Source of the DNA: Nitrospirota bacterium
Lineage (GTDB): Bacteria > Nitrospirota > Nitrospiria > JACQBZ01
Assembly (NCBI GenBank): GCA_016200255.1
Contig: JACQFA010000008.1
Coordinates: 561 to 64,560 of the forward strand
Direction: 5' to 3'
DNA: 64,000 nt
Position 1 is the stretch's first letter. Each line of letters opens with the position of its first letter. This document shows, piece by piece, positions 9,145-63,710 of the stretch. Position numbers and translations under genes: made by a program. The notes beneath the pieces are model-generated. The model saw only the letters and a list, made by a program, of their open reading frames with translations, had not been told where the DNA came from and made no database searches.

Positions 9145-10481
9145 CGCAGGTCCTGATCATCGGCGGGGGATTTGCCGGACTGTCGGCCGGCGTCGCCCTT
9201 GCGGATCAAGGCGCGAGGGTCACCGTGATCGAACAGCGTCGTATCCTGGGCGGCCGCGCCTATTCGGTCGAAGACGGAACGACGGGCGAGCTGATCGACA
9301 ACGGACAGCATGCGCTTCTCGGCGCCTTTCATGAAACCCAAAAATTTTTAAAAACAATCGGCACGGACGGCCTGATCCGGTATCAGGACCGCTTCCGGAT
9401 GGTCCTGGCCGAACCCGGCGGCGGCCGTATGACGTTGAAGGCCGCATCGCTTCCCGCCCCTTTTCATCTGGCGGCCGGCGTGGCTTTGTGCCGCGGCCTC
9501 TCGATGACGGACCGCTTTCATCTTCTCCGTGCCGGCCTCTCGATGCTGATGACCCGATCCCTTCCGGAAACGATGACCCTCAAGGACTGGCTGGACTCCC
9601 TCGGCCAGCCGGCATCGCTTCGCCAGCGATGGTGGTATCCCCTCTCGATCTCGGCCCTCAACGAACTGCCCCATCGCGCCTCGGCCGATCTCTTCTTGTG
9701 CGTATTAAAGCAGGCCTACTTCGGATCAGTCCGGGACTCTTCGTTCGGAATCATGACGGTCGGGCTGGGCGATCTCTACACCGAACAGGCCCGGCAATTC
9801 ATCGAAGCCGGAGGCGGGCAGGTCTTATGCAACACGACCGCGTTTCAACTGGCCTTCTCAGACCGGCAACTCGATGCCGTCGTGCTGCGAAACAGCGGTT
9901 CGATGACGGCCGATTACATGATCAGCGCCGTGCCGCATCATGTTTTACGGAAATTATTGCCGCCTGAACTGATGAAACAAGGCGCGCCGTTTGAAGCGCT
10001 GACGCACCTGGCCGAATCGCCCATGGTCTCGATCCATCTCTGGTTCGACCGGCCGGTGATGGACGAGGAGTTCATCGGACTGATCGACTCGCCGATTCAG
10101 TGGGTCTTCGACAAATCCCGTCTCTGGAAAGAGGGCGAAACCCAGGCCGGCGCGCTGGCCTGCATCACGAGCGGCGCCTACGACTTGATTGATCGCTCAA
10201 AGGAAGATCTAATTGCCCTCGCTCAGAATGAATTGGTCCGTTTTTTCCCGGAAGTTTCAAAGGCCAGACTCATTCATTCCCGGTTGATCAAGGAACGGAA
10301 TGCGACCTACTCCTGCACGCCCGAGGCCGAGCGATGGCGGCCGAAACAGGAAACGCCGTATCGAAATTTCTTCCTGGCCGGCGACTGGACCCGCACCGGC
10401 CTTCCCGCGACGATCGAGGGCGCCGTCACCAGCGGCCACCGCTGCGCTGGATTGATACTACGGGATAAGAGCGGCAATTAA
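9141..10481 (+). CDS. hpnE: FAD-dependent amine-oxidase-family hydroxysqualene dehydroxylase.
   Basis: N-terminal VLIIGGGFAGLSAG dinucleotide-binding motif. It lies immediately downstream of the hpnC/hpnD pair with a 4-nt overlap. Confidence 0.75.
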   Translation: MTQVLIIGGGFAGLSAGVALADQGARVTVIEQRRILGGRAYSVEDGTTGELIDNGQHALLGAFHETQKFLKTIGTDGLIRYQDRFRMVLAEPGGGRMTLKAASLPAPFHLAAGVALCRGLSMTDRFHLLRAGLSMLMTRSLPETMTLKDWLDSLGQPASLRQRWWYPLSISALNELPHRASADLFLCVLKQAYFGSVRDSSFGIMTVGLGDLYTEQARQFIEAGGGQVLCNTTAFQLAFSDRQLDAVVLRNSGSMTADYMISAVPHHVLRKLLPPELMKQGAPFEALTHLAESPMVSIHLWFDRPVMDEEFIGLIDSPIQWVFDKSRLWKEGETQAGALACITSGAYDLIDRSKEDLIALAQNELVRFFPEVSKARLIHSRLIKERNATYSCTPEAERWRPKQETPYRNFFLAGDWTRTGLPATIEGAVTSGHRCAGLILRDKSGN

Positions 10482-10659
10482 GGACTTCCTCAACGGAAAA
10501 TGTGTCTTATAAATAGATTGTGCCGGATGTCACAGAAAACATGAGACGACTCCTGTTATCGTTGTCGTCTCGATCGATAACGATCCGCCCCGGAATCTTC
10601 ATATTGATTCCCCGATGAAAAAAGCCTAGAATGATAATTAGCATTCACTGGAGATAGCA

Positions 10660-13600
10660 TTGATGGTCCGGACACGATTTGTACTTTTCATGTCGATTGC
10701 GCTTCTTCCTCTCCTGTTCTCGGGATGCCCCAGCAGCGGAGGAGGCGGATCATCCTCTTCCTCTTCATCGGATACGACACCGCCGACCGTCAGTTCCACC
10801 CAGCCGGCCGCCGATGCAACCGGAATCGCCCTTAACACGACCATCACCGCCACCTTCTCGGAGGCGATGGACGCCACAACGCTCACCGCCGCGACCTTTA
10901 TCCTGATGGCTGGCGGAACTGCGGTCACCGGAACGGTGAGCTACACCGGGACCACCGCCACCTTCACGCCGTCCGCAGCGCTGGCCTCGAACACACTCTT
11001 GACCGCAAAAATTACGACCGGGGCGCAAGACCTGGCCCACAATCCTCTCGCGGCCGATTTCAGCTGGCAGTTTACGACCGCGCCGGACACCACGCCGCCG
11101 ACCGTTATCTCAACCAATCCAGCGAACAACGCCGTCGACGTGCCATTGAACAGTTCGATCACCGCCACCTTCTCAGAACCGATGGACCACACAACCCTTT
11201 CGAATACCACCTTCATCGTAAGTACCGGGGGAGTCCCAATCGCCGGAAGGATCGGTTACAGCAGCACCAGCGTCACCTTTACGCCAACATCGAGTCTGAT
11301 CAATGTCACGGACTACACCGCAACGATCACGACCGGCGTAAAGGATCTGGCCGGAAATTCTCTCGCCGCCGACTTCGCCTGGTCGTTTACCAGCGGAGGC
11401 GCCATCGACAACATACCGCCCACGGTTATCTCCACGACGCCCGCCACTCATGCCACGAATGTTCCCTTTAATACAACGATCAGCGCCACATTTTCGGAAG
11501 CAATGGATCCTTCCTCGATAACAACGGACAGCTTCAAGGTCAGCACGGGCGGGGGCTTTATCACCGGAACGGTCAACTACAGCGGTACGACCGCCACCTT
11601 CACGCCAGATACGCCCCTCGCCTCGGCCGCCACGTATACCGCATCAATAAAAACCTTCGCAAAGGACCTGGCCGGAAATGCCCTGGCGGCCGACTACAAC
11701 TGGCAGTTCGGCATGCTCACAAAACCCACGCTCTGCGTTATACCGGGGGGCGGGGGTGTAAATAACTGTTATGCCACGATCAACGGCGCGCTGGCCGCGG
11801 CCAAAACCGGTGACATTGTCGGCGTCGCGGCCGGAACCTACCCCGAGAGCGTCGTCGCAAACAGTTTTAATTATAATGTTTTAATCACCCAGACCGTGAC
11901 ACTGGAAGGCGGCTGGGATATCAGCTTTAATGTCATGGACCCGGTGGCAAACGTCACCACGATCACACCGTTAAACCCTTATGCGGTTGTTGCAGTTGAG
12001 GGCGTGCCTGGGAGTACCAGCACGGTGGCCCCGACCATTGACGGTTTTACGATCACCGGCGCGGTCAGCACCAATCACGGAGGCGGTCTGCGGATCCAGA
12101 ACAGCGACGCGATCGTGCAAAATAATATCATCACAAATAATACGGCCTATTTCCTCGGAGGCGGCGCTTGGGTACAGAACGGCGCGCCCCAGTTCAAGAA
12201 CAATCAGATCACGAATAATACCGTCACCCCCAGCGGAAACGCTTATGGCGGCGGGATCGAACTGGAGAATACAACGGCCGCACTGGTCGGCAACACGATC
12301 AGCGGCAACACCGTGGCCGCCACAACCGGATATGGCGGCGGCGTATACGTTGACGGCGGAGGGCCGGTAAAACTGATCGGCAACACCATTGACGGAAATA
12401 CCGGAAGCCACGGATCGGGCTACGGCGGGGGCGTCAGCATTCGAGCCGCCGCTGCAACGCTGAACAGCAATATCATAGATGGGAACTCCGGGGGCGGAAG
12501 CGGCGCCGTCAGCTATGGCGGCGGGATCTATGTAGACAGTTCATCTTCATTCGTACTAAATAGCAACACGATCACCGGCAACGTCGTGGGCGCGGAAAGC
12601 ACCGGCGTCACGCCCTCTTACGGCGGCGGCGTGTATATCACCACGAGTCAGGGATCGCTGTCCGGCAACACGATCGCCAATAATATAGCCGCCCCGAGCG
12701 GCGCTTCTTCCGAGACGGGATGGGGAGGCGGATTGGCAATCGTCGGCAGCACGGTCTTTTCGCACAATGACAAGCTCACGGGCAACTCCGTCCGACTCGG
12801 CGACGGGTGCGGGCTCTATGCCGGCACAAGCACGATCAAATTCAATGCCGTAGCGATACAGGACAACAACTGCCTGGGGCTGTATCTTTCCGCCACCCCC
12901 TATACCCTGAACGACGCCTTGGTAACCGGGAATACGACGGGCGGGCTGAAAGCGGTTACAATCAGTGCAACCGCCAGCCCGGGCGTCTTGATCAACAACA
13001 CCTTCGTGGGAAACAATAGCGGAGAAGGGATTAATACCGACTCGGCTCTCACGATTGTGAACAACATCATCATGGGTCATGCGACCGGCGTTAAAGTTGG
13101 GGCAACGGCGCCGGTCAGCAGGAACAATGATTTCTACAACAACACGACGGACACCGTCGGTTTTTCAAAAGATGCCAGCGACATCATCCCAAGCGACCCT
13201 CTGTTCATCTCCATCTCCGATTACCATCTCACGTCATCTTCGCCGCTGATCGATGCCGGCACGCACGGGCCGATTCCGGATGCCACTTCACCGGGGCAGA
13301 ACGCGAACCTTCCCGACACCGACATGGACGGCCAGTCGCGTGCCATGATCGGCACCAGCCATCTGTATAAGGTCGATATCGGCGCGGATGAGTTCGCAGG
13401 CAATACCCCCAGACCCCAGCGGATCGTCAACCTGGACGGCGGCGGAGCGGACCTAACGATCATCGGCCCCGGAGGCGTGGACCCGAATGCGTCGGCCAAC
13501 GACTGGATCGGGTATGCCGTTCTGGGAACCGATATCAACGGCGACGGCAAAGCCGACTTAACGTTCTCGGCGGAGGATTGGGTCATCGACTTCAACAATC

Positions 13601-14793
13601 CGCCGCATTCGACCGGCCGTCTGTTCGGACTTTCTAATACGGGCAGCCGCAAGACCGGAACGCTCGATCTTTCCAGCACCTCGGCCGACCTGATCGTGGA
13701 TTCCAGGATGAATCTCCAGCATCTTGGATCGGCCCTGACGGGCGGCGATCTCAACGGCGATGGCCATTCCGACCTGATCGCCGGTTCATATCAGGACGAC
13801 GGGGGCGGTGGCGGGACGGTCTGGCCGACCGTGTTCGCCTTCTGGGGCGGTTCCTCCCTGACCGGAACCCGTCTGTTGGACGGCGTCCTTCCTTCGGATA
13901 ATCACGCCGATTTCGCGCTTCGCGCGCCGGGCCAGGACTTCTTTGCCTTCTCGTCCAAAAACGCCTTGACGACCGGCGACCTCAACGGCGACGGCATCGC
14001 CGACCTGATCGTCGGCGATGGGCTGGCGGACAACCCCTCCCCTGCAACGGCCGACACCGGGGCGATTTTTGTGATCTTCGGGGGATCCGGTCTGACGGGT
14101 CTGCATGATCTGGGGGCGACGCCGGCGGATTACACGCTTTATGGAGCCGCGGCCGCCGACAAACTCCAATCGGTCGCCGTGGGACTGGTCGATTCCGATG
14201 CGCAGGCGGACCTCGTGGCAAGGACGGACACCACCGCCTATGTCTTTCTGGGACCGATCACCGGAACACCGCCGATCACGGCCACCACCGCCTCGGCCGA
14301 TCTCACCATCACCGGTCTTTCGGCCGGAGGCGTCGCCGTGATGGACATAACGGGGGACAACAAGGGCGACCTCATCCTCGGTTCGGGGAATATCATCTAC
14401 ATCCTTCCCGGTCCATTGGCAAAAGGCAGCTTTCCTGTCACAAGCGCACCGGGCTTGATCACCTTGACCGGCATCGCATCGGATGCGGTTTTTTCCATCG
14501 GGAATGTGGTCGGCAGCTCGAACCCGGACCTGATCATCGGCTCGCCCTCGCTCAAGCGGGTTTTCGTCATTGCCGGGGGAATGCCGCTTTCCGGAACCGT
14601 CGATCTGGCTGATGCTTCGGCTACCTTCGTAGAAAGCGCCGTGCTAAATAAGCTGGGGTACGACGTTACGTCGGGCGATCTCGATAACGACAGCCGTCCC
14701 GACCTGATCGTCAGCACCTGGCAACAGAATGTGACCTCTCATCCCGCCAATTTCCAGGATGCCGGACTGGTTTATGTGATCTACGGCAAATGA
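10660..14793 (+). CDS. Giant cell-surface lipoprotein: three tandem Ig-like (SbsA/Big-type) domains, a right-handed parallel beta-helix region and a C-terminal FG-GAP/VCBS repeat region.
   Basis: Lipobox LLFSGC followed by a Gly/Ser linker. Three roughly 105-aa repeats each begin TPPTV...ATFSE.MD. Periodic NNxITNN and YGGG(V/I) turns are typical of PbH1 repeats. Multiple GDLNGDG...DL integrin-alpha-type calcium-loop repeats occur toward the C-terminus. The likely start is the ATG at 10663. Confidence 0.8.
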   Translation: MMVRTRFVLFMSIALLPLLFSGCPSSGGGGSSSSSSSDTTPPTVSSTQPAADATGIALNTTITATFSEAMDATTLTAATFILMAGGTAVTGTVSYTGTTATFTPSAALASNTLLTAKITTGAQDLAHNPLAADFSWQFTTAPDTTPPTVISTNPANNAVDVPLNSSITATFSEPMDHTTLSNTTFIVSTGGVPIAGRIGYSSTSVTFTPTSSLINVTDYTATITTGVKDLAGNSLAADFAWSFTSGGAIDNIPPTVISTTPATHATNVPFNTTISATFSEAMDPSSITTDSFKVSTGGGFITGTVNYSGTTATFTPDTPLASAATYTASIKTFAKDLAGNALAADYNWQFGMLTKPTLCVIPGGGGVNNCYATINGALAAAKTGDIVGVAAGTYPESVVANSFNYNVLITQTVTLEGGWDISFNVMDPVANVTTITPLNPYAVVAVEGVPGSTSTVAPTIDGFTITGAVSTNHGGGLRIQNSDAIVQNNIITNNTAYFLGGGAWVQNGAPQFKNNQITNNTVTPSGNAYGGGIELENTTAALVGNTISGNTVAATTGYGGGVYVDGGGPVKLIGNTIDGNTGSHGSGYGGGVSIRAAAATLNSNIIDGNSGGGSGAVSYGGGIYVDSSSSFVLNSNTITGNVVGAESTGVTPSYGGGVYITTSQGSLSGNTIANNIAAPSGASSETGWGGGLAIVGSTVFSHNDKLTGNSVRLGDGCGLYAGTSTIKFNAVAIQDNNCLGLYLSATPYTLNDALVTGNTTGGLKAVTISATASPGVLINNTFVGNNSGEGINTDSALTIVNNIIMGHATGVKVGATAPVSRNNDFYNNTTDTVGFSKDASDIIPSDPLFISISDYHLTSSSPLIDAGTHGPIPDATSPGQNANLPDTDMDGQSRAMIGTSHLYKVDIGADEFAGNTPRPQRIVNLDGGGADLTIIGPGGVDPNASANDWIGYAVLGTDINGDGKADLTFSAEDWVIDFNNPPHSTGRLFGLSNTGSRKTGTLDLSSTSADLIVDSRMNLQHLGSALTGGDLNGDGHSDLIAGSYQDDGGGGGTVWPTVFAFWGGSSLTGTRLLDGVLPSDNHADFALRAPGQDFFAFSSKNALTTGDLNGDGIADLIVGDGLADNPSPATADTGAIFVIFGGSGLTGLHDLGATPADYTLYGAAAADKLQSVAVGLVDSDAQADLVARTDTTAYVFLGPITGTPPITATTASADLTITGLSAGGVAVMDITGDNKGDLILGSGNIIYILPGPLAKGSFPVTSAPGLITLTGIASDAVFSIGNVVGSSNPDLIIGSPSLKRVFVIAGGMPLSGTVDLADASATFVESAVLNKLGYDVTSGDLDNDSRPDLIVSTWQQNVTSHPANFQDAGLVYVIYGK
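10777..11710 (+). repeat. Three intragenic tandem repeats of about 315 nt each, encoding the Ig-like domains of the giant lipoprotein.
   Basis: TPPTV(S/I)ST.PA ... ITATFSE(A/P)MD ... GT(V/I).Y..T..TFTP ... KDLAGN.LAAD recurs three times in the translated ORF. Confidence 0.7.
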
Positions 14794-14840
14794 CCCTCAT
14801 CAGCCGCCGCTGCGCGGAAGCGATCCGACGATCTTCACAG

Positions 14841-14868
14841 GGGCGGTCCTGATGGTCGCCCTTTTTTT
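14841..14868 (+). terminator. Putative Rho-independent terminator downstream of the giant lipoprotein gene.
   Basis: GGGCG(gtcctgatggt)CGCCC stem followed by TTTTTTTATTTT. Confidence 0.45.
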
Positions 14869-14907
14869 ATTTTATGTGAATGCGGTCAATGCGGAAGAGG
14901 AGCGTCT

Positions 14908-15111
14908 TCAGTAGAGCGGGGGCTGGGGGCCCGGCTTGATGCCGGCCAGATCGGGATCCAGACCATCCTCAAGAGGGATCTCGGTCTCCTTGACTTTTTT
15001 ACGTTCTTCACGGCGCTGGATCTTTTCCTTGCGCTTTTCGGCTTTGGCACGTTCGCGCGATCGCTTCGTTGCCGTCGCTTTTGGATGAGTCGCCATATGG
15101 GTTCCTTCCAA
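14908..15111 (-). CDS. Small, highly basic Lys/Arg-rich hypothetical protein. The likely start is the ATG at about 15096 (MATHPK...), preceded by GGAAGGA.
   Basis: ORF with a plausible Shine-Dalgarno sequence 6 nt upstream of an internal ATG. No recognisable domain. Confidence 0.35.
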   Translation of the reverse strand: MEGTHMATHPKATATKRSRERAKAEKRKEKIQRREERKKVKETEIPLEDGLDPDLAGIKPGPQPPLY

Positions 15112-15167
15112 CCATCGAGATTATTTGTGATGGGATTATATCATACTAACGGACAAAACACAAACAG

Positions 15168-16187
15168 ATGACCTCTGCTGAAGTTGTCGCCGAATTTCGC
15201 CCCGCATGGTGGCTTCGCGGATCGCACCGTCAGACGGTCTGGCGGTCGCTGTTCGGCAGAGGTCCGGCGCCGCCGTACCGGCGCGAACGATTTGAGACAT
15301 CGGACGGCGATTTTGTGGACCTGGATTGGTTCGGATCCGGCGGTCGATCCGGCGACCGGCCGCTGGTGATCGTACTGCACGGTCTGGAAGGATCGTCCCG
15401 ATCACCTTACGTTCCCGGGCTGCTTCGCGAGGCGGCCCGGCGCGGCTGGGACGGGGTCGCCATGAATTTCAGGTCCTGCAGCGGCGAGATGAACCGGAGG
15501 CCGCGGTTCTATCACTCCGGCGAAACCGCGGACCTGGACGAGGTTCTCTCTTCACTGATCCATCATCGGCCCGGCCGTTCGATCGGGCTGGTCGGCACCT
15601 CGCTGGGTGGAAATGTACTGTTAAAATGGCTGGGCGAGCGCGAAGACAAGGTTCCCGAAGCCGTTCGGGCGGCCGTGGCGGTCTCCGTCCCGTTCGATCT
15701 GGCGGCCGCGGCTTATCAGGTCGACCACGGGCTGAGTCGGATCTACGGACGGAGGTTCCTTCGCACGCTGAAGGAAAAGGCGCTGGCCAAGGCCCGTCTG
15801 TATCCCGGCCTGCTCGACCCGGACGAGGTCGCCGCGATCCGGAGCTTCGCCGTTTTCGATGACCGCGTAACCGCGCTGCTCCACGGATTCTCAAGCGGGC
15901 GTGACTACTGGACGCGGGCGAGCGCCACGCCGTGGCTCGCGGCCATCCGGAAACCGACGCTACTGATCAATGCAAGCGACGATCCGTTTTTACCGGCAGC
16001 CTGCCTTCCCCATGACGCGGCGGCCAGGTCGCACTGGATCAAAACCGAGTTTACTCTACGCGGCGGGCACGCGGGATTTGTCGAGGGATGGCGGCCGGGA
16101 GCGGTTTCCTACTGGATCGATCGCCGGGCGATGGCCTTTCTCGATTCGGTCGTCTGCACCAAAGGTCGCACAGGCCCGGCTCCTTGA
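15168..16187 (+). CDS. Alpha/beta-fold hydrolase of the YheT/ABHD1-3 type.
   Basis: LVIVLHGLEGSS ... GTSLGGN nucleophile-elbow region. Length 339 aa. Confidence 0.75.
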   Translation: MTSAEVVAEFRPAWWLRGSHRQTVWRSLFGRGPAPPYRRERFETSDGDFVDLDWFGSGGRSGDRPLVIVLHGLEGSSRSPYVPGLLREAARRGWDGVAMNFRSCSGEMNRRPRFYHSGETADLDEVLSSLIHHRPGRSIGLVGTSLGGNVLLKWLGEREDKVPEAVRAAVAVSVPFDLAAAAYQVDHGLSRIYGRRFLRTLKEKALAKARLYPGLLDPDEVAAIRSFAVFDDRVTALLHGFSSGRDYWTRASATPWLAAIRKPTLLINASDDPFLPAACLPHDAAARSHWIKTEFTLRGGHAGFVEGWRPGAVSYWIDRRAMAFLDSVVCTKGRTGPAP

Positions 16188-16215
16188 CAAGTCGGCGCGG
16201 ATGCCTTAATCTATA

Positions 16216-16235
16216 TGTAGAACAATTGTTCTACA
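16216..16235 (+). promoter_or_regulatory. Perfect 20-bp palindrome TGTAGAACAATTGTTCTACA, the putative autoregulatory operator/promoter of the toxin-antitoxin operon.
   Basis: The sequence is self-complementary. It is centred about 32 nt upstream of the antitoxin GTG start and immediately upstream of AGGAG. Confidence 0.6.
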
Positions 16236-16257
16236 ATTATATAGAAGGAGAGCGCCC

Positions 16258-16527
16258 GTGAAGTTCGTTGCCGTAAGGGAACTACAGATCAATTCTTCCA
16301 GGATTCTGGACAAAGTCAAGAAGGGGGAAGACGTCGTTTTAACCCGATTAGGCAAACCGGAAGCGGCCCTGATTCATCTCACGGAGGACGAGCTCGATGA
16401 ATTCCTGGTGCTCCGTCATCCCACCCTGATGAAAGAACTTGAAAGCGCCTACGAGGAGTTCCGGAAGAAGGGAGGCATTACCCAAAAAGAGATGAAAGAA
16501 AGACTCCGTCGCCGTGGAAAACGTTGA
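16258..16527 (+). CDS. Phd/YefM-family type II antitoxin.
   Basis: VAVRELQ...SRILDKVKKGEDVVLTRLGKPEAALI N-terminal Phd/YefM fold motif. It overlaps the downstream toxin by 14 nt. Confidence 0.8.
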   Translation: MKFVAVRELQINSSRILDKVKKGEDVVLTRLGKPEAALIHLTEDELDEFLVLRHPTLMKELESAYEEFRKKGGITQKEMKERLRRRGKR

Positions 16528-16822
16528 CCTGATCTACGCCCCGCGCGCCCAACGCGATCTGCTGGATCTGCCCAAAAAGATAGTCGATCAAATCCTAAAC
16601 GACCACGACCTCCTGAAAACCCGCCCCTGGCCTAACACCAAAGTCAAAAAACTAAAAGGACATCCTTACCGGGAGCTGAAGACCGGAGATTATCGGTCTC
16701 TGTTCGTTGTTGAATCAAACACCGTTGTCTTTCTCCGCATCGTGAACCGGAAAGACCTCGAAACCGCCGTGAAGCGAATCGATCTCAGAACGCTCTGGCT
16801 GTGGTTGAGGGATAAAAGTTAA
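16514..16822 (+). CDS. RelE/ParE-family type II toxin.
   Basis: YAPRAQRDLLDLP ... LKGHPYRELKTGDYRSLFVV ... VVFLRIVNRKD. Small, basic, and translationally coupled to the antitoxin. Confidence 0.8.
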   Translation: MENVDLIYAPRAQRDLLDLPKKIVDQILNDHDLLKTRPWPNTKVKKLKGHPYRELKTGDYRSLFVVESNTVVFLRIVNRKDLETAVKRIDLRTLWLWLRDKS

Positions 16823-17046
16823 CACAGATACCGCTCCCTTGTTTCAAAAACCTCGTCATGGTCTCATGAATCCGGAAATTGATTTTTAAAAGGTTTCAGC
16901 GTACCCTCATTGGGAGGTCAAAAACAAATGTTTAATCCCAAGGCAGGAATGTGGTTTCTTTAGGGAATAGATATCCTGTTAAGTTCCGATGCTATCACTT
17001 TTGCGTTCGGGTTTGTGATGGCGATACAGAGGAATAAGAGACGAGC

Positions 17047-17844
17047 TTGAATATGGAAACTGTTCGTGTGAACTCAGTCGAGGAGTTTGCTTCCCGAGTG
17101 AGGATTTTTCGTAATAATTGGGATAAGGAAGAGCTGTGGTTTAGAGGTGAAGACTCCTCACGATACCGCAACCCATTACGTCCAAGCATCTACCGGCCAC
17201 CCCGACCTGCGATAGAACATGAGGCTCGGGAAAATGAGGACGAAACTCGGATCGAGTTCAGCCGGCGCGGGCACTCGCTCGTTATCGAGAGAACGCCAGA
17301 AAACGAACTGGATTGGTATATCCTCATGAGACACAATGAGGTACCTACTCGCCTATTGGACTGGACCGAAGCATCTCTGATTGCTCTTTTCTTTGCGGTG
17401 CGGGACCGCGGTAGGGCGAATTCCGATAACAGGACTGAAAGTGCTGCAGTTTGGGTGCTCGATCCTGAGTGGCTCAACAAGAAAGTTATTGGCAAGTATG
17501 AGTTTGTATTACCAAGCGACCCAATCATTAATAAATATCTCCCTGAACCAAGGAAAAGAAAGCCAAGGGGCTTGCTTCCGATCGCGATCCTTCCACGTTA
17601 CCCGATCCGTCAAATGCTGTCGCAAAGGAGCACGTTTACAATTCAGGGAGCTCCTAATGGTTTTGATTTAATAAGATCCCGACGGGGAGAGAGGCGGATT
17701 GCAAAGATCGTAGTTCGGAAGTCCAGCTTCGGCGATATACTTAATGATCTCTCTAGCTGCGGCATTGACGAAGCAACGCTCTTCCCGACCTTGACGGGTC
17801 TGGGCAAGGAAGTGACAGCACTTTACTTGAATTATTCTAAATAA
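17047..17844 (+). CDS. FRG-domain protein.
   Basis: Hallmark EELWFRGE motif near the N-terminus with surrounding conserved hydrophobic positions. It sits in an AT-rich islet. Confidence 0.6.
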   Translation: MNMETVRVNSVEEFASRVRIFRNNWDKEELWFRGEDSSRYRNPLRPSIYRPPRPAIEHEARENEDETRIEFSRRGHSLVIERTPENELDWYILMRHNEVPTRLLDWTEASLIALFFAVRDRGRANSDNRTESAAVWVLDPEWLNKKVIGKYEFVLPSDPIINKYLPEPRKRKPRGLLPIAILPRYPIRQMLSQRSTFTIQGAPNGFDLIRSRRGERRIAKIVVRKSSFGDILNDLSSCGIDEATLFPTLTGLGKEVTALYLNYSK

Positions 17845-18218
17845 ATTCGATATGTGGCCCCCTTTTACTCGAACGGCCCGCAACACGTTTACCGAAAATA
17901 TCGCACGGTGTTTACTGGTAGGAATGAACGAAAGTTATAAGTGAATCTTTTCTGGTTCCAAAATCAGTTCTTTCTGAGTTTGCCTATTCACAAAGGAAAA
18001 AACCGATGAAAGTCAAAGAATTTGTGGTATCGAAAAAGAACAGGTTTTTGAAACCTCCCTTTGTCAGATAAAAAGTGGGATGTGAACTTCTTCCTGAAGT
18101 CAATAGTTGAAAAAAATCGATATAGGGCGTAGATTACAGGCGAAAATTGTTTATGCAAGGAGGCGAGTGTGGCAAGTTACACAGATCCATTTAACGCTAG
18201 TTAGAAATCACGGTTGCA

Positions 18219-18659
18219 GTGGTGCGAGACATGGGTTCTACAGATATTGCGGCATGGTGGGGAGCGGTTGTTGCCTCTCTTGTTCTGTTCTGGGACGTGT
18301 ATAAATGGAAAGCAGAGGGACCGCGCTTGACAATGCGTTTATCGCCAAACATGAACATTTTTGGAGACCCGTTGCGGGAAGGAAAAAAATGGGTCACCGT
18401 AACAGTTTCGAACATCGGGAACCGTCCGACCACAATCAAGAGTGTTGGAATGGAGTACCATAGCAATTGGTTGAATCGGCTTCGAAATAGAGCCGAGAAG
18501 GCTGTTGTATATACAAATCCGAACGATCATTTCCCGCTTCCTAGACTTCTAAATCCAGGGGATGAATGGGTTGGCCTAATTCCTCAAGAGCGTCTCGACA
18601 AATGGGTGGATCTTGAAGATATGTCTCGAACAGGTCATGTGATGATTTGGCTATCGTAA
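18219..18659 (+). CDS. Hypothetical protein with an N-terminal transmembrane anchor, in the AT-rich islet.
   Basis: One hydrophobic helix (AAWWGAVVASLVLFW). A strong AAGGAGG lies about 60 nt upstream. No known domain recognised. Confidence 0.5.
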   Translation: MVRDMGSTDIAAWWGAVVASLVLFWDVYKWKAEGPRLTMRLSPNMNIFGDPLREGKKWVTVTVSNIGNRPTTIKSVGMEYHSNWLNRLRNRAEKAVVYTNPNDHFPLPRLLNPGDEWVGLIPQERLDKWVDLEDMSRTGHVMIWLS

Positions 18660-18768
18660 TCCCACAAGCAACGGGCAATGCGAAAACGGCTCATTTTCGC
18701 TGGCTCTTAAAGACTGATGCTCCGAAGGAGCAAGATCAGACTGGTAAAAGCTAAAACTATTTTAGAAT

Positions 18769-19788
18769 TTGGAGAAAACCTACCATGACCCAGTGGGGGA
18801 TATTCCTATGTTTCGATTTTGCGGTGTAGCTATTATTGTTGCCCTGGCGTGCCTCACGCCATGTCTTGTATTTGCGCAGGGACCAGCAAAGTGTGATTTT
18901 GAGACCGAACTCGGCAAGTTATACAGCGATGCACAAACAAAACGCGAAAATTTGGCAGTTCAGCAGAAGCAGGTGCTAGGTCAAATCAGAAAGATCATAG
19001 AAAATCTTCCCGAGAACAACAAACCAATTGGGGAGCAGTTAGACAAAGAAGGTCTTGCTAACTTTGAAAAGCTTAGAGAGAGACAATTTGTGCTGATGAA
19101 CGTGTCTCTATCGGAGAGCAAGCGCATGCGTGACATGCAGTTTTTTCGTAAGTTTGCGATCCTTGCAGAGAAGGATGTGCGGTTCCCGGAGATACCGCCC
19201 TCCGACCACCCTGATTTCATTGCTTACATAATGCTGACGTCTGCCCGTCAAATATTCCAAGGTAAAGTAGAAATATCAGAGGTGAAATTTGATCAGTGCA
19301 ATCTCGAAGCAGCCATCCAGACGATGGAGCAGGACGTGATTGATAGGGTCAATGCGAAGGACAATACAGCCCTCAATGAATTGCTGGGCTTACAGTCAAT
19401 GCTTGAGAGGAAATACAAGACAAAAGACTTAGATCCCCAAAAGATATCGGAAGCGGACCAGAAAGCCCTAAAGAAGGCTATCGAGAACAATGAGCCAATG
19501 CAGAGGTTAATAAATCTCGCGAAGGACTACGAGATCCTGAAGGTGCTTGTGAAAGCAAGCCAGCTGATATACGACATGGATAAGGAAGACATCCTGACAT
19601 ACGGTGCTGACGCAAAAAAAATCGGAAGCACACTCATGACCAAGGCAAACGCCGGTAAATATGGGGATATGGTAAAACGTGCGCATGCCGTCATGCTGGT
19701 GATGGACAAAAAGATTCCCTCTGATGACGCAAAGGATATAAAGAAATTGTCCGATGAAGCGGAGGCCGATAGAAAGGAAGCCAAGTAG
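18769..19788 (+). CDS. Hypothetical secreted alpha-helical/coiled-coil protein, in the AT-rich islet.
   Basis: Internal signal peptide MFRFCGVAIIVALACLTPCLVFAQG (the likely real start is about 18808). Charged heptad-like composition. No known domain recognised. Confidence 0.5.
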   Translation: MEKTYHDPVGDIPMFRFCGVAIIVALACLTPCLVFAQGPAKCDFETELGKLYSDAQTKRENLAVQQKQVLGQIRKIIENLPENNKPIGEQLDKEGLANFEKLRERQFVLMNVSLSESKRMRDMQFFRKFAILAEKDVRFPEIPPSDHPDFIAYIMLTSARQIFQGKVEISEVKFDQCNLEAAIQTMEQDVIDRVNAKDNTALNELLGLQSMLERKYKTKDLDPQKISEADQKALKKAIENNEPMQRLINLAKDYEILKVLVKASQLIYDMDKEDILTYGADAKKIGSTLMTKANAGKYGDMVKRAHAVMLVMDKKIPSDDAKDIKKLSDEAEADRKEAK

Positions 19789-20260
19789 ATAGACTGCATA
19801 TTACCAATTTGACCATTGAAAAGAACATGTCATCTGCTAACCACCTCCGAGGGATCGCTTCGCACCCCCAGACCCATTGACGTTATACTCTCTTTTTCCC
19901 GTAATCCTTAATTCTCTGCCATTGTTTCTTTGAGCATTAGTAGGTGAAAGCCACAAAGAATATTTGTGCTCAAGCCCACCACTCTCAGGCCAATTCCAGC
20001 CCACTCCACCAAATTAGCGTTTCTTTATAACTGTTTGCTGGAATTGGTTCATGTGGGATAGAGCAGGACGGAATAGATGAGTTAAACTTTTTAGAAGGCA
20101 GATGCTCTATTTTACCGTAAACTATCGAACTATAGATTTCGGACGGCGTCAGAATTCAGATGTTTTCAGTTTTGTAGAGACTGATTTCGTACGAACACCG
20201 TTACAGATAATATTTAAATTCGCTTCCGAACGTCGGGAAATAGGCCGAGATCATCGGCTC

Positions 20261-22339
20261 TTATCGCGCCTTCCTGCTGTTTTTGGACCGCGTGCGACTT
20301 CCCTTTCGCTCTTCCGGCGGGACGTCTTCCAGAACCATCAGAAGCTGTTTTTCGACGACCGCCTCGTTGAGCTTGACCGCAATCTCTTTGATCACGCCGT
20401 GCATCGGCGACAGGACGGCCGTCTCGACCTTCATCGCCTCGATGTTCATGATCTCCTCGCCCTCCTTTACGATGTCCCCGATCTTGAGGATGCGGTCTTT
20501 GTCCCCGATCCGCCAGACGTTCCCCATAATGGGGGAGGCGACCCGCCCGGGCACGGCCGGATCGGCAAAGCGCGGACCGGCCTTCTGGGCGGCCTTGCGG
20601 GACGGCATTTCGACGGGGAAGACATGCATCGTGCTGTTCACCGATAGAACAATATGCTTGACCCCGTCCACATCCTGGCCGATCGAAACCAGTTTGATCC
20701 TGTTGGGTTTTCCGTGGGTCTCAAAGACCGCCTCGCTTCCGAACTCCTTTAATCCGTCGAACCAGATCCCGGTCGGAAGCACCGTGGTGTTTCCGAAACG
20801 GGTCTGGAAGCGGATGAAGTCCACCGCCGCGCCGGGATGCTGCATGTAAAGCACCAGTTCATTCTCGGTAGGATGGCGGGCTATCCCTTTTTGAAGCTCC
20901 GTCCGGGCCCGCTCGACATCTTCGTCCGGCTTTTGGGCCAGCGGGGATTCTTCGAAACGCTCCCTGGCGACCTTCTCACGCCAGGCATCGCCGAATACGG
21001 ATTGATAGACCCAGTCGGCGGGCCATCCGAAGGGCAGCGGCCCGTAACGTCCCAACAACAGGTTTTTGAGATCATCCGTGGCGCGGGCATACAACCCCAG
21101 CAGCGACTCCTTTTCCTCCGGCTTGAGCGCGTCAAACGACTGCCCCTGCGCGATGAACCGCTCGCAAAGATCCAGAAGATCCTCGACCTGCTTGAGGCCG
21201 CCCTCCTTGTAGTGATACTGGACGATCCCTGCCCAGGTCGTCCAGGTGATTTGCGATCCCGGCGTGACATCGAAATATTTAATGAAACGGTTGCCGTTGC
21301 TCATCCCTCTCAATATCTGCGGCATGAGCGAAAGAAAGCCGCCCTTGGCGGCCTGTTCAAAGGAGCTGGGGAAAGCGCCGCCTGGCATCCGGTGCTCGGT
21401 GACTTTATAGGAGAAGCCGTGGAACTGGGACTCGAACTCCCGGTAATGACCGATGAAGCCGGTGACCGTCTCGGCCGCTTTGTCCGCCATGGGAAGATCC
21501 AGGCTGGTTGCTATCCCCATCTCTTGGAGGAGGGCCTGGACGGAGCGGACCGGCGCATGGCCGTAGTACCGCGTGAACGGGTCGTCCGTCACATCGAGAA
21601 TCTTCACCCCAGCCTTCGCCGCGGCCGCCAGGGCCGGAACGGCCAGACCGTCCGTCGCGTGGCGGTGGTACTGGATCACCAGATCGGGATATTTTTGAAG
21701 CAGGACGTCCGTCAACCGGGCGACCCGTTTGGGCGATCCCACCCCGGCCATGTCCTTGATGCAGAGGATGATCTCGTTCGTTCCGCCGGTGACCTTGAGG
21801 ATCTCGTCCGTCAATTTCCGGTAATAAGCATCGGTGCAGTCCTGCGAGACGCCGAAGGAGATGGCGGGTTGAAACAGCTTCCCGCCCTTCATCACCTCCT
21901 CCGCGATCGGGATCATGTTGGGAACGTAGTTCAGAAAATCGAAGCATCTCCACACGTCCACAGTCGGAAGGAAGGCCTTCACGGAAAGACGGATCACATT
22001 GCGGGGATACATCCGGTAGCCCCAGAGATTGGTCGAGCGGACCAGCGTCTGCGTCATCACGTCCGGCATCCGCTCCTTCCAGAGGATCGCCTCCTCGAAC
22101 GGATCGGTCATGTTCTGAAGGAGGTTCTGGTGGAAGCGGGCCCCGCCGTGGTTTTCGATCGAGAAATAACCGGACCGGTTGTAGAACGGGGCGAGACGGA
22201 TCAGGTCATACAGCGTGTGCCGGTTCTTAAAATCGCTCTGGCCGGTATCCCGCGGACCGGTGTTGGTGAAATAGACCCGCCGGTCGCTCCGGAGGGCGGC
22301 GATATTTTCGCGGGGGCTTTTTTTCGGATGGACCGTCAT
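20261..22339 (-). CDS. Large subunit of a two-subunit biotin-dependent carboxylase (carboxyltransferase plus C-terminal biotinyl carrier domain), of the pyruvate carboxylase subunit B / 2-oxoglutarate carboxylase CfiA type.
   Basis: Carboxyltransferase (HMGL-like) core around YHRHATDGLAVPALAAAAKAG. A C-terminal biotinyl-lysine motif EAMKVE. Confidence 0.8.
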   Translation of the reverse strand: MTVHPKKSPRENIAALRSDRRVYFTNTGPRDTGQSDFKNRHTLYDLIRLAPFYNRSGYFSIENHGGARFHQNLLQNMTDPFEEAILWKERMPDVMTQTLVRSTNLWGYRMYPRNVIRLSVKAFLPTVDVWRCFDFLNYVPNMIPIAEEVMKGGKLFQPAISFGVSQDCTDAYYRKLTDEILKVTGGTNEIILCIKDMAGVGSPKRVARLTDVLLQKYPDLVIQYHRHATDGLAVPALAAAAKAGVKILDVTDDPFTRYYGHAPVRSVQALLQEMGIATSLDLPMADKAAETVTGFIGHYREFESQFHGFSYKVTEHRMPGGAFPSSFEQAAKGGFLSLMPQILRGMSNGNRFIKYFDVTPGSQITWTTWAGIVQYHYKEGGLKQVEDLLDLCERFIAQGQSFDALKPEEKESLLGLYARATDDLKNLLLGRYGPLPFGWPADWVYQSVFGDAWREKVARERFEESPLAQKPDEDVERARTELQKGIARHPTENELVLYMQHPGAAVDFIRFQTRFGNTTVLPTGIWFDGLKEFGSEAVFETHGKPNRIKLVSIGQDVDGVKHIVLSVNSTMHVFPVEMPSRKAAQKAGPRFADPAVPGRVASPIMGNVWRIGDKDRILKIGDIVKEGEEIMNIEAMKVETAVLSPMHGVIKEIAVKLNEAVVEKQLLMVLEDVPPEERKGSRTRSKNSRKAR

Positions 22340-61533: not shown

Positions 61534-61606
61534 TGCCCCCGGGGTGATTTGAACACCCGGCCAACGGTTTAGGAAACCGCTGCTCTATCCCCTGAGCTAC
61601 GGGGGC
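61534..61606 (-). tRNA. tRNA-Arg, anticodon CCU.
   Basis: 73-nt cloverleaf: acceptor GCCCCCG/CGGGGGC, D-arm GCTC-AGGGGATA-GAGC, anticodon arm GCGGT-TTCCTAA-ACCGT (U33, A37), T-arm GGGTG-TTCAAAT-CACCC, discriminator A. No encoded CCA. Confidence 0.85.
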
Positions 61607-61705
61607 GGTTTCATTTTCTTCGTCTAAAAATGAGGCGCGACGAACCAAAGCTACATTGGATGATACCCTGATCAAGAGTTCGAATCAAGGAGGAAGGTGG
61701 CGATG

Positions 61706-62800
61706 TCAGATCGTTGCAGCCTTTTTCTTGCCGAAATACAATCGCCGCGTACGAATATTGTTCGGATCAATACAGAATGACTTCAACTGCTCACGTTTCC
61801 TTGGAATAAATATACTGGCTCTGCGGTAGAGAAACTGATATAGCTTTGTCATCCCAGCTCTTCCAGAACTTATTTGCACACTGTATGATGGATGCTTGCT
61901 CGACGTAGAATTCACATAAATATGGGCCGGAAATCCCAACAAGTTTAATGCGGAGTTAAGTCCATTTGCAAAGGCCTCTGAGCCGGTAACAAGCGTTGCT
62001 TTTTTACCAGAATATGAGCCGTCGCCATCAAACACACCTCTTATAAAGCCACTCAAGTATCGAGATGGTATGTCTGGAAAAGCTATTTTAAGGCTTTTAT
62101 TCGGACAAAGCCCAAAACTTTCCAGTCTCTCAAATATTTCCTTATCATAAAATCGCAGGGTGTGTATATAACTATCCTCGTTGTTTCTCGATCTAACCAG
62201 TGCAGTATTCAAAGAGAGCATCTCCTTTATTCGATCGAGAATGTACGGGTCCTTTTGAGAGATTGAGACTTGATATCTGGCCACGACTTTATTTCTATTT
62301 TTAACAAAACTTTCCTTTATTAGATTACCGTCAGTATAAATGAGCCCCAAAACGTAAGCAAAACCATCAGTCCAGTTATTAAAAAAGGATCTATCGATCT
62401 CTTGTTTTTTATGTTGAATGTGTTTGATATTACCCCACGTATCCTTTATTTCATATGCGATTTTACCTTTGCCTAAAGCCGTCGCCCTAGCATCTTGTTT
62501 TGAACGCCGCTCTATTCCAAACGACTTCATTAACTTCAAAACATACTGGCGGCTACATTTAAGCTCGCTGGCAATGTCCTGGAGAGAGGCTCCGTTTTTT
62601 TCGTACCGCTCAATAAAATATTCACGTGTTATATTTTTTAAGATACCATGTTTTCTAATGAAAGATGACTTGTTCAGTTTCCTGCGTTCATTAGCTTCAC
62701 GTTCATAACAAACTCTACATAGACCTCGACTCCTATGGGGAACATCAACTGTCCCACAATTAACACACTTGGAATTCTTTAGAGACCACGGTCGAAGCAT
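61706..62800 (-). CDS. Free-standing double-motif LAGLIDADG-type homing-endonuclease-like protein with an N-terminal zinc ribbon and helix-turn-helix.
   Basis: C-x2-C...C-x2-C (CVNCG...CRVC). HTH LQDIASELKCSRQYVLKLM. Two dodecapeptide motifs, VLGLIYTDGNL and LSGFIRGVFDGDGS. Low-GC gene adjacent to a tRNA. Confidence 0.6.
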   Translation of the reverse strand: MLRPWSLKNSKCVNCGTVDVPHRSRGLCRVCYEREANERRKLNKSSFIRKHGILKNITREYFIERYEKNGASLQDIASELKCSRQYVLKLMKSFGIERRSKQDARATALGKGKIAYEIKDTWGNIKHIQHKKQEIDRSFFNNWTDGFAYVLGLIYTDGNLIKESFVKNRNKVVARYQVSISQKDPYILDRIKEMLSLNTALVRSRNNEDSYIHTLRFYDKEIFERLESFGLCPNKSLKIAFPDIPSRYLSGFIRGVFDGDGSYSGKKATLVTGSEAFANGLNSALNLLGFPAHIYVNSTSSKHPSYSVQISSGRAGMTKLYQFLYRRASIFIPRKREQLKSFCIDPNNIRTRRLYFGKKKAATI

Positions 62801-62827
62801 CTGTTAATCCACCAGCATTAAAATTTC

Positions 62828-63580
62828 TCAAGAACACCACAGCGGCTTACCGAAATACCACATCTCTGAGGCAATCGAGATTATAAGAATGAAAAGCAAC
62901 ATAACCAGCCAATCCGATGCTGGGTGCTCTTCGATTGGGCGGTTGGGGTCAAGCATCCATAGCTCTAACTCGCGTTGACGCCATCTCATTCTTACATGGA
63001 GCCAATAGAGAGATACCATACCGTTCAGAATGATGACGGACATAAAAGCCGATTTTGAAGAACATAAGATCATAGAAGGCCCAGAAACAAAAAACCAAAC
63101 AAAGAACGACATTAAGGAAGAAAGCGAAGCGTTTCCCGCCATCTCTTTTATGACCACCAAGCGCTCACGGTTGTGTGCTATTCGTTCACGCGCTCTTCCC
63201 TTATTTGCATCATTTTCTCTTTGATCGAAATTGTTTTGCTCAAACTGTAATATCCGATTAAAAAATACTTCATAAGTTTCATCGCTGGGATGAGCACTTA
63301 ATATCTGCACCGGTCTCAATTCCGCCCATCTTGGTACTTGGATTAACTCTCCTAAACCCTGGATGGCAAATCCCAACGCATAGCATATGCCGTAAACAAA
63401 CAACCAGCCCCACGTCGGTATCTTACGAATCGCATCAATGAAGGGAGGATTCCCATCATTAACATTAAACCACCATGCAACGGTCAATAGAAGAATCCCA
63501 CCTGGAACAATTTTCGCAAAGAGGTCTCTGGCAATGAATGTTGCGTAGAATCGGTCGAGGTTCATGAGATGATACCTCAC
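62828..63580 (-). CDS. Hypothetical polytopic membrane protein in the low-GC islet.
   Basis: About 4-5 hydrophobic helices. No recognised domain. Confidence 0.45.
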   Translation of the reverse strand: MRYHLMNLDRFYATFIARDLFAKIVPGGILLLTVAWWFNVNDGNPPFIDAIRKIPTWGWLFVYGICYALGFAIQGLGELIQVPRWAELRPVQILSAHPSDETYEVFFNRILQFEQNNFDQRENDANKGRARERIAHNRERLVVIKEMAGNASLSSLMSFFVWFFVSGPSMILCSSKSAFMSVIILNGMVSLYWLHVRMRWRQRELELWMLDPNRPIEEHPASDWLVMLLFILIISIASEMWYFGKPLWCS

Positions 63581-63710
63581 AGGAAAGCGACAAGGATTGA
63601 TAGGCCGAATATACGCTTATCCAGGATGGGAATCAAGAAGACGGGAATAGCAGAAAGGTTTGAAGACGAGGAAGGATGCTTTAGAGACTCAGACAGTTAA
63701 TGACTACTTC

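Follow-up and report, generated by a model that had tools for sequence, protein, structure and literature searches.

Both the Aravind group (PMC9503650) and a second source (bioRxiv 10.1101/2024.07.30.605764) count the FRG domain in the ADP-ribosyltransferase (ART) superfamily and regard it as a putative NADase effector. In PADLOC, FRG proteins are matched by the candidate PDC-S15, one of the 145 PDC systems, which are stated by their source to be untested (Payne et al., bioRxiv 10.1101/2024.01.29.577857). The candidates were detected through genes embedded within BREX, DISARM or type I restriction-modification systems, and no demonstrated defence phenotype for any FRG protein was found in the searchable literature.

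Other described systems suitable for comparison are the ART toxins and effectors (RES toxins, KptA/Tpt1, DarT, and the cholera, pertussis and diphtheria-type toxins), the Phd/YefM-ParE pairs that stabilise islands and integrons, and the locus following the replication gene in P2-like phages, which we take to be a variable defence hot spot.

The locus considered here belongs to a Nitrospirae metagenome assembly and lies in a stretch of 64,000 nucleotides (hereafter the window, whose numbering is used throughout), where it is flanked by an alpha/beta-hydrolase gene and by the 3' end of a biotin-carboxylase operon. An earlier note on this DNA had proposed that an islet at 16830-20260, encoding an FRG-domain protein and two unknown proteins (ORF2 and ORF3), is a candidate for an uncharacterised accessory or defence module. 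The comparison with related loci leads to a different reading: the segment from about 16200 to 20260 is, with good probability, a variable hot spot holding at least three independently acquired units, and not one system. The first unit would be a Phd/ParE toxin-antitoxin (TA) pair and the second a unit of about 1 kb with FRG as its only gene, while ORF2 and ORF3, two unrelated orphan genes, would make up the remaining cargo. Conserved AT-rich spacers would bound the swapped units, the likeliest route of exchange being homologous recombination between related populations, and most of a native 91-aa gene would have been lost when the patch arrived.

The Low-GC Patch and Its Alleles in Related Genomes

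The islet is composed of three ORFs in the same orientation, as the earlier note had described and the ORF list confirms, separated by intergenic gaps of 110-375 nt. Its GC content is 45.3% (the first estimate was about 43%) vs. 55.6% across the whole window, and the remaining 3.4-kb windows have a mean of 56.3% with a standard deviation of 3.1%. In the flanks, the hydrolase and carboxylase genes reach 64.8 and 59.7%, respectively, and GC3 is 46-54% in the islet genes vs. 73-79% in the flanking ones. The patch is therefore AT-rich, as claimed, but its left limit had been misplaced: the fall in GC does not occur right after the TA pair but begins at about 16200, ahead of that pair, whose own GC content is 50.8%. 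Another low-GC patch is present within the window at 61.7-63.6 kb.

The site differs in related Nitrospirae genomes. In one of them (L016) it is “empty,” being composed of the hydrolase gene, two small genes and the carboxylase gene, with hydrolase and carboxylase 83 and 86% identical to those of the window and with no TA pair, FRG gene, ORF2 or ORF3. A second one (L015) carries other cargo: it shares with the window the segments 15180-16911 (hydrolase, TA pair and first spacer), 17959-18138 and 19940-20045, lacks the FRG gene, and carries, where ORF2 and ORF3 would be, a cytochrome P450 gene in the opposite orientation. Since the composition of the patch is foreign and the patch is absent or different in these close relatives, it can be regarded as accessory DNA, in agreement with the horizontal acquisition proposed in the earlier note, and the TA pair has to be included in the variable region because it is missing from L016.

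Insertion as a tRNA-integrated genomic island or prophage was considered and rejected. Among the scanned ORFs no integrase gene is found in or adjoining the patch, which is flanked by the hydrolase and the carboxylase genes; profile searches gave no integrase or transposase match for FRG, ORF2 or ORF3; no tRNA lies beside the islet, the only one of the window being at 61534-61606; and the repeat search detected no flanking direct repeats or target-site duplication above chance. The profile and repeat searches thus bear out the islet's description as devoid of integrases, transposases and flanking direct repeats. In the non-coding parts, an E-value search over 15900-20500 gave no Rfam match to structured RNAs.

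The right edge of the patch, previously described as about 470 nt of non-coding DNA, measures 472 nt (19789-20260), but it is less featureless than that description suggests, as it contains a segment of 106 nt shared with L015 and, on the reverse strand at about 20204-20260, a 17-codon C-terminal remnant (EPMISAYFPTFGSEFKYYL followed by the stop codon) of the native 91-aa gene. Compared with L016, which has the whole gene downstream of its carboxylase, the window lacks the 5' three-quarters.

The Toxin-Antitoxin Pair

At the left limit of the patch, the repeat search revealed an imperfect palindrome of 34 nt (16209-16242) directly upstream of the Phd gene, a position that makes it a probable promoter/operator of the TA pair. 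The two genes, both on the forward strand and overlapping by 14 nt, encode an 89-aa antitoxin of the Phd/YefM family (16258-16527; TIGR01552, 25.1 bits with a cut-off of 20.8; Pfam PhdYeFM, E = 6e-7, slightly below the gathering score) and a 102-aa toxin of the ParE/RelE family (16514-16822; Pfam ParE_toxin, 27.1 bits with a cut-off of 23), and both match type II TA families. The antitoxin, absent from L016, is 98% identical to the L015 copy and the toxin 91%.

In its overlapping genes, its upstream palindrome and its place at one edge of the variable patch, the pair resembles the Phd/YefM-ParE stabilisers of islands and integrons; here, the same pair sits with different cargo in L015. By this likeness, the pair probably just stabilises the patch.

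The FRG-Domain Protein

The FRG unit spans about 1.05 kb on the forward strand (16912-17958) and is absent from L015, where 74 unrelated nt are found instead. It encodes a stand-alone FRG-domain protein of 263 aa (17053-17844, forward strand) that starts at the ATG at 17053, with the TTG at 17047 as an alternative start. The FRG-domain call of the earlier note passed a Pfam profile search (PF08867, E = 1.8e-18, 67.7 bits with a gathering cut-off of 25, residues 29-123). The (F/Y)RG motif is present as W29-F30-R31-G32, with R31 and G32 invariant in 71 homologs, and the conserved residues include H94, T99-R100, D103-W104, Q191, S193 and F195 as well.

At the sequence level the protein matches no solved structure. 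Its predicted structure is confident and shows an ART-type fold; the closest solved structures are nearly all ADP-ribosyltransferases, with modest scores, and the model ties the FRG protein to this fold. The likeness to the ART toxins and effectors listed above is one of fold; the classic H-Y-E or R-S-E triads could not be matched to the conserved FRG residues, and the gene has no apparent antitoxin or immunity partner.

Fourteen PADLOC models of PDC-S15 match the protein, the best being PDLC04938 (E = 1.1e-40, residues 2-261). The full-length match, the stand-alone architecture and the occurrence of relatives near defence genes are shared with PDC-S15; in contrast to the cases within BREX, DISARM or type I restriction-modification systems, the FRG gene of the window is not so embedded and has the TA pair as its sole mobile or defence-like neighbor. 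Elsewhere, FRG relatives adjoin AbiLi/AbiLii or a DitA-like gene, and one follows the replication gene in a P2-like phage. At this locus, Peduovirus P2_2H1 carries a PDC-S15-matching FRG protein of 454 aa, 33% identical to that of the window and with about 165 extra residues at the N-terminus; unlike the phage locus, that of the window is chromosomal and without phage genes.

Whereas the fold and the family membership come from the model and the profile searches, it is the literature and the gene neighborhoods that suggest a defence role and NAD+ chemistry. Most likely, the FRG protein is an abortive-infection effector, predicted to consume NAD+ or to ADP-ribosylate and to act alone. With respect to the earlier note, the defence candidacy holds for FRG, as PDC-S15, and does not extend to ORF2 and ORF3, which have no PADLOC match; the term “uncharacterised” has to be dropped, because FRG proteins are already ART-like in the literature and already PADLOC candidates. 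The site itself is an ordinary variable hot spot, with an FRG gene of this known kind. It provides a clear case, in nature, of a stand-alone FRG (PDC-S15) gene that travels by itself in about 1 kb of DNA, which supports testing FRG as a single-gene effector.

ORF2 and ORF3

The product of ORF2 (18219-18659, forward strand; 142 aa from the ATG at 18231) has a transmembrane helix at its N-terminus and, after it, an Ig-like beta-sandwich. The N-terminal anchor described earlier is thus present, but the protein is not intact: a premature TAA (18657-18659) falls at a conserved Gln and truncates the C-terminus, while the homologs run about 20 residues further and the frame past the stop still reads SHKQRAMRKRLIF, matching them. 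Relatives of ORF2 are found among the accessory “moron” genes of prophages and also beside integrases. Neither ORF2 nor ORF3 has a significant Pfam, NCBIfam or PADLOC match, with a single marginal PHROG match (E = 0.009), in line with the earlier note, which saw no recognisable domain in ORF2.

ORF3 (18808-19788, forward strand) codes for 326 aa, a secreted protein whose signal peptide would be cleaved at about VFA|QG. The ATG at 18808 is most likely its start, being preceded by a GGGGGA ribosome-binding site and giving a product identical to the deposited protein; a TTG start, which gives the 339 aa previously assigned, is less likely. ORF3 is a small uncharacterised secreted family: there are 9 close clusters of homologs, and a wider search gives 249 representatives at E ≤ 1e-3, mostly of about 300-350 aa. 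Over 68 sequences, the nearly invariant positions (≥90%) are two Cys, an R-D pair, an Asp and a Pro. No significant link to a known family came out of Pfam searches on the 68 members or a profile search of the PDB, and no matches were found in viral contigs or plasmids. One relative lies within an element bearing an integrase and an excisionase. A conserved partner gene was sought but not found, as the neighbors in three different contexts are unrelated to one another and to those in the window. In this way, two uncharacterised families whose genes move singly as accessory cargo are delimited: the membrane-anchored Ig-like ORF2, known also from prophages, and the secreted ORF3 with its two conserved cysteines and 249 representatives.

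The mobile contexts of these relatives might indicate that the patch is what remains, after decay, of one larger mobile element (a prophage or integrative island), which lost its integrase and its ends and whose genes arrived together as cargo. The truncation of the native gene at the right edge, the decay of ORF2 and the uniformly low GC over the patch are consistent with this explanation, which we nevertheless consider unlikely: integrase, tRNA and direct repeats are all missing at the patch, the elements found elsewhere share at most one gene with it, and L015 differs unit by unit on a common backbone. Because of these unit-by-unit differences, piecemeal turnover fits better than a single arrival.

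Co-occurrence of the Three Genes

Thirty fetched loci match a protein of the islet, and 28 of them, which carry a relative of FRG, ORF2 or ORF3, are informative; the two left out are L015, where only the TA pair matches, and L045, which is a piece of the window locus itself at 100% identity. By tblastn, none of the 28 has more than one of the three genes: FRG occurs as the only one in 10 loci, ORF2 in 11 and ORF3 in 6. The sample is small, as these loci, on short contigs, correspond to about 8 distinct contexts for FRG, about 8 for ORF2 and about 3 for ORF3.

These counts bear directly on the possibility that FRG, ORF2 and ORF3 form one defence or abortive-infection operon, with FRG as the effector and the others as sensors or partners. 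Co-orientation, close spacing, a common low GC content and the adjacent TA pair would all be expected of such an operon. Besides the lack of any pairing in the 28 informative loci, however, the alignment with L015 has FRG as a separate insertion/deletion and ORF2 and ORF3 replaced together by a P450 gene, ORF2 carries a premature stop and PADLOC treats FRG as a single-gene candidate. The three-gene operon is largely refuted by the co-occurrence test and we give it hardly any credit; the single module of the earlier note is not supported on the same grounds, a lack of co-occurrence elsewhere being an outcome that the note itself had named as a refutation. Since the genes are co-oriented and closely spaced, FRG, ORF2 and ORF3 may be co-transcribed at this locus. 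More generally, genes that are closely packed in one orientation within foreign-looking DNA need not be a system.

The Spacers and the Proposed Exchange of Units

Three AT-rich spacers persist in L015, as seen by blastn and alignment: spacer 1 (16823-16911, 84% identity), spacer 2 (17959-18138, 85.6%) and spacer 3 (19940-20045, 106 nt, 80%). An inverted repeat of 11 nt at 19990-20047 overlaps spacer 3 and is poorly conserved in L015.

Conserved spacers flanking units that differ between relatives call to mind an integron-like cassette array without integrase (CALIN), in which site-specific swapping would take place at attC-like sites in the spacers. The units of the patch are co-oriented, single-gene and promoter-poor, a TA pair is a usual component of chromosomal integrons, the FRG unit has a left junction that recurs, and spacers 2 and 3 contain imperfect hairpins. 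Nonetheless, a box-pattern scan of both strands over 16100-20400 found the pair RYYYAAC...GTTRRRY in no spacer, its single match lying in the ParE gene; there is no integrase gene in or beside the patch; in L015 the arms of these hairpins lack both conservation and compensatory changes; the replacement gene of L015 is on the opposite strand; and no further copies of the spacers occur in the window. A cassette array of this kind is thus very improbable. A perfect inverted repeat of 13 nt around FRG (16841/18042) was also evaluated and, having two uncompensated mismatches in L015, was taken as chance.

The preferred reading, exchange by homologous recombination, leaves room for two more speculative ideas, which we put forward together as a long shot. 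The first is that the spacers could mark an integron-free exchange, at a fixed chromosomal site in Nitrospirota, of cassettes that each carry one accessory or defence gene, as they bound the units that vary among relatives and one junction, that of the FRG unit at 16912-16918, recurs in two independent comparisons, the second being with L046. The other, separate from it, is that TA pairs could be coupled to FRG effectors. A functional link is conceivable because FRG is preceded by a TA pair both here and in L047, whose Phd/ParE genes are of a different lineage, and because HicAB is close to FRG in L035.

Two minor features were noted in spacer 2. A small ORF (MKVKEFVVSKKNRFLKPPFVR) that seemed conserved was discarded, since its start codon is lost in L015, and the promoter scan located a promoter-like site at 18107-18135, identified by consensus match only.

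Composition and Gene Content of the Patch

The low-GC stretch between the alpha/beta-hydrolase gene and the biotin-carboxylase operon is foreign in composition. GC content in 16830–20260 is 45.3%, against 64.8% in the hydrolase gene on the left and 59.7% in the carboxylase gene on the right, 55.6% in the whole window and a mean of 56.3% (sd 3.1) in the other 3.4-kb windows. Third-position GC is 46–54% in the genes of the patch vs. 73–79% in the flanking genes, and the anomaly noticed in the earlier note is therefore real. The drop, which had been placed right after the toxin-antitoxin (TA) pair, starts instead at about 16200, ahead of that pair (GC 50.8%). The genes of the Phd antitoxin (16258–16527) and the ParE toxin (16514–16822), both passing their family thresholds, overlap by 14 nt and are preceded by a 34-nt palindrome; the three co-oriented ORFs proposed earlier were all found, namely FRG (17053–17844, with an alternative TTG start at 17047), ORF2 (18219/18231–18659) and ORF3 (18808–19788). 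The reported lack of obvious flanking direct repeats is borne out by a repeat search, in which none exceeded chance; a tRNA scan of the window placed no tRNA beside the patch, and an Rfam search of the patch gave no match. The wider neighborhood in the window is of housekeeping type (hopanoid-type genes, the carboxylase operon and a GHMP kinase). A second low-GC patch, at 61.7–63.6 kb (61534–63600, 40–47% GC), adjoins the only tRNA of the window, tRNA-Arg-CCT (61534–61606), and codes for a 364-aa LAGLIDADG_3-domain protein and a 250-aa protein without Pfam match.

The Patch Is Not One Module

The earlier note regarded FRG, ORF2 and ORF3 as a candidate module. When the proteins of the patch were compared by tblastn with all 49 fetched loci, 30 had at least one match: FRG only in 11 (including one FRG-SET-type or partial relative), ORF2 only in 11, ORF3 only in 6, the TA pair only in one (L015, a related Nitrospirae MAG contig), and the TA pair with FRG in one (L045, a 1.3-kb, 100% identical fragment of the window's own locus). 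Leaving out the last two, none of the 28 informative loci holds two of the three genes, the very outcome that the note itself had named as speaking against its proposal; together with the unit-wise differences from the relatives, this shows that the patch is not a single module.

Two related Nitrospirae MAG contigs, L015 and L016, retrieved via the hydrolase, reveal a patch that varies unit by unit. In L016 the order is hydrolase, a small basic-protein gene, a 91-aa gene and carboxylase, and all five genes of the patch are absent. L015 is 85% identical to window 15180–16911 (hydrolase, both TA genes and 89 nt of spacer), then carries 74 unrelated nt in place of a 1,047-nt FRG segment, shares the spacer 17959–18138 (85.6%), has in place of ORF2 and ORF3 a cytochrome P450 gene, which lies on the other strand, and shares 19940–20045 (80%). 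The FRG unit is separable: in L046, a third contig, whose FRG gene is 89% identical in DNA, another gene is found upstream, and homology sets in at window 16918, which is also where the left junction falls when L015 is compared. At the right edge, the carboxylase stop codon is immediately followed by what is left of the 91-aa gene, its last 17 codons (20204–20260, minus strand); this gene, without Pfam match, is intact in L016 (3434–3709). Both relatives also miss at this place 10460–15186 (4.7 kb, from the hopanoid-type genes to the hydrolase), encoding a surface protein of the Big_5/FG-GAP type (1377 aa) and a protein of 67 aa rich in lysine and arginine; a homolog of the small gene is found in L016 on the opposite side of the hydrolase.

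Homologous recombination via the conserved spacers most likely exchanges the units, and the TA pair probably stabilizes the patch. We consider improbable a novel, spacer-bounded mechanism of cassette exchange. An integron-like patch, in which attC sites would delimit the cassettes, has a slight chance of being correct, since neither hairpin conservation nor a scan for attC boxes (a pattern scan rather than an attC covariance model) lends it support. A perfect 13-nt inverted repeat brackets the FRG gene (16841–16853, GTTTCAAAAACCT; 18042–18054, AGGTTTTTGAAAC); it is probably due to chance, because its arms have two uncompensated mismatches in the FRG-less L015. The nearest known counterparts are Phd/ParE pairs, variable accessory-gene hot spots in general, the PADLOC phage defence candidate PDC-S15 and the ADP-ribosyltransferase (ART) superfamily, and no evidence from the patch requires a new kind of system.

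The FRG Protein as a Candidate Defence Effector

The FRG-domain call of the earlier note passes a profile search (Pfam PF08867, E=1.8e-18). The protein is also matched by phrog_4962 and by 14 PDC-S15 models, the best spanning its whole length (E=1.1e-40), and by sequence it is a member of PDC-S15, a class whose function is a candidate one. The PDC candidates were derived by applying "guilt-by-embedding" to loci of BREX, DISARM and type I restriction-modification systems; their source states explicitly that they are untested (bioRxiv 10.1101/2024.01.29.577857). Among more than 500 homologs, the closest (60–66% identity) are stand-alone and equal in length, therefore the window copy is intact. 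Fusion to a SET methyltransferase domain (PF00856) is frequent among more distant homologs: roughly 40 of the 120 best homologs are such proteins, of ~400 aa (P0086–P0160), an architecture of which no discussion was found in the literature searched.

A confident AlphaFold2 model (71 sequences; pLDDT 93.3, pTM 0.91) gave no significant match in Foldseek, the top matches being nevertheless ARTs, and a PDB sequence search had no match. The modeled fold is ART-like, with modest scores, and places the protein in the superfamily at the fold level, in agreement with the assignment of FRG to it by the Aravind group, who proposed an antiviral effector, possibly an NADase (PMC9503650; cited also in bioRxiv 10.1101/2024.07.30.605764).

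Association and fold are what points to a defence role, in which FRG would be an effector that aborts infection by itself, through NAD+ depletion or ADP-ribosylation. In locus L047 (5617–6507), an FRG gene 54% identical to that of the window, split into ORFs of 100 and 168 aa (frameshift, stop codon or assembly error), lies directly 3' of a Phd/ParE pair of another lineage, with an AbiLi/AbiLii pair ~2 kb off. The order TA-then-FRG is therefore seen twice, with unrelated TA pairs; a functional coupling of the two seems unlikely to us. In L035, a DitA-like DUF5677 gene and a gene for the HicA toxin lie ahead of FRG, the small ORF before HicA presumably being the antitoxin, and an IS200-like transposase comes behind; in L037, FRG is placed among ordinary metabolic genes. 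Peduovirus P2_2H1 has a 454-aa PDC-S15-type protein downstream of the replication gene and close to the genome's right end, the position of the variable old/tin region in P2-like phages.

ORF2 and ORF3

ORF2, which may be decaying, stops at a TAA (18657–18659) where ~50 homologs (~50 clusters, 160–170 aa) have Gln. In 18657–18710 the stop is followed by 13 codons (SHKQRAMRKRLIF) that still match the homologs, so that it is a recent, even very recent, nonsense mutation, which cuts off a basic C-terminal tail of ~20 residues; the identical truncated sequence is also present in an independent Logan assembly. Distant relatives (30–38% identity) were found in six IMG/VR viral contigs. Some, of 170 aa and with the same layout of transmembrane helix and beta-sandwich, are flanked, in myovirus-like prophages, by the genes of the tail tube and the tape measure (L038 5980–6492; equivalents in L041 and L042), an unusual location for a small membrane protein, and one adjoins an excisionase and an integrase; these are moron-like positions.

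For ORF3, the signal peptide proposed earlier is clear by inspection; the protein is most likely 326 rather than 339 aa long, counted from ATG 18808 with a GGGGGA ribosome-binding site in front, and this product is identical to a deposited protein of a Nitrospirae MAG. Close clusters are only nine; when 1.84 billion representatives were searched with a profile, 249 family proteins were recovered, mostly of ~300–350 aa. Near-invariant residues of the family (≥90% in an alignment of 68 sequences) are two Cys, an R-D pair, an Asp and a Pro. Searches of Pfam and PDB gave no link, those of viral contigs and plasmids no match, and the neighbors in the three distinct contexts of the family bear no relation to one another. 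ORF3 would be an unrelated periplasmic or secreted protein. TA pairs recur beside all three orphan families: lone ORF3 relatives lie immediately 3' of VapBC (L001–L004, with a HEPN/MNT pair nearby in L001), and a lone ORF2 relative immediately 3' of MazEF (L009).
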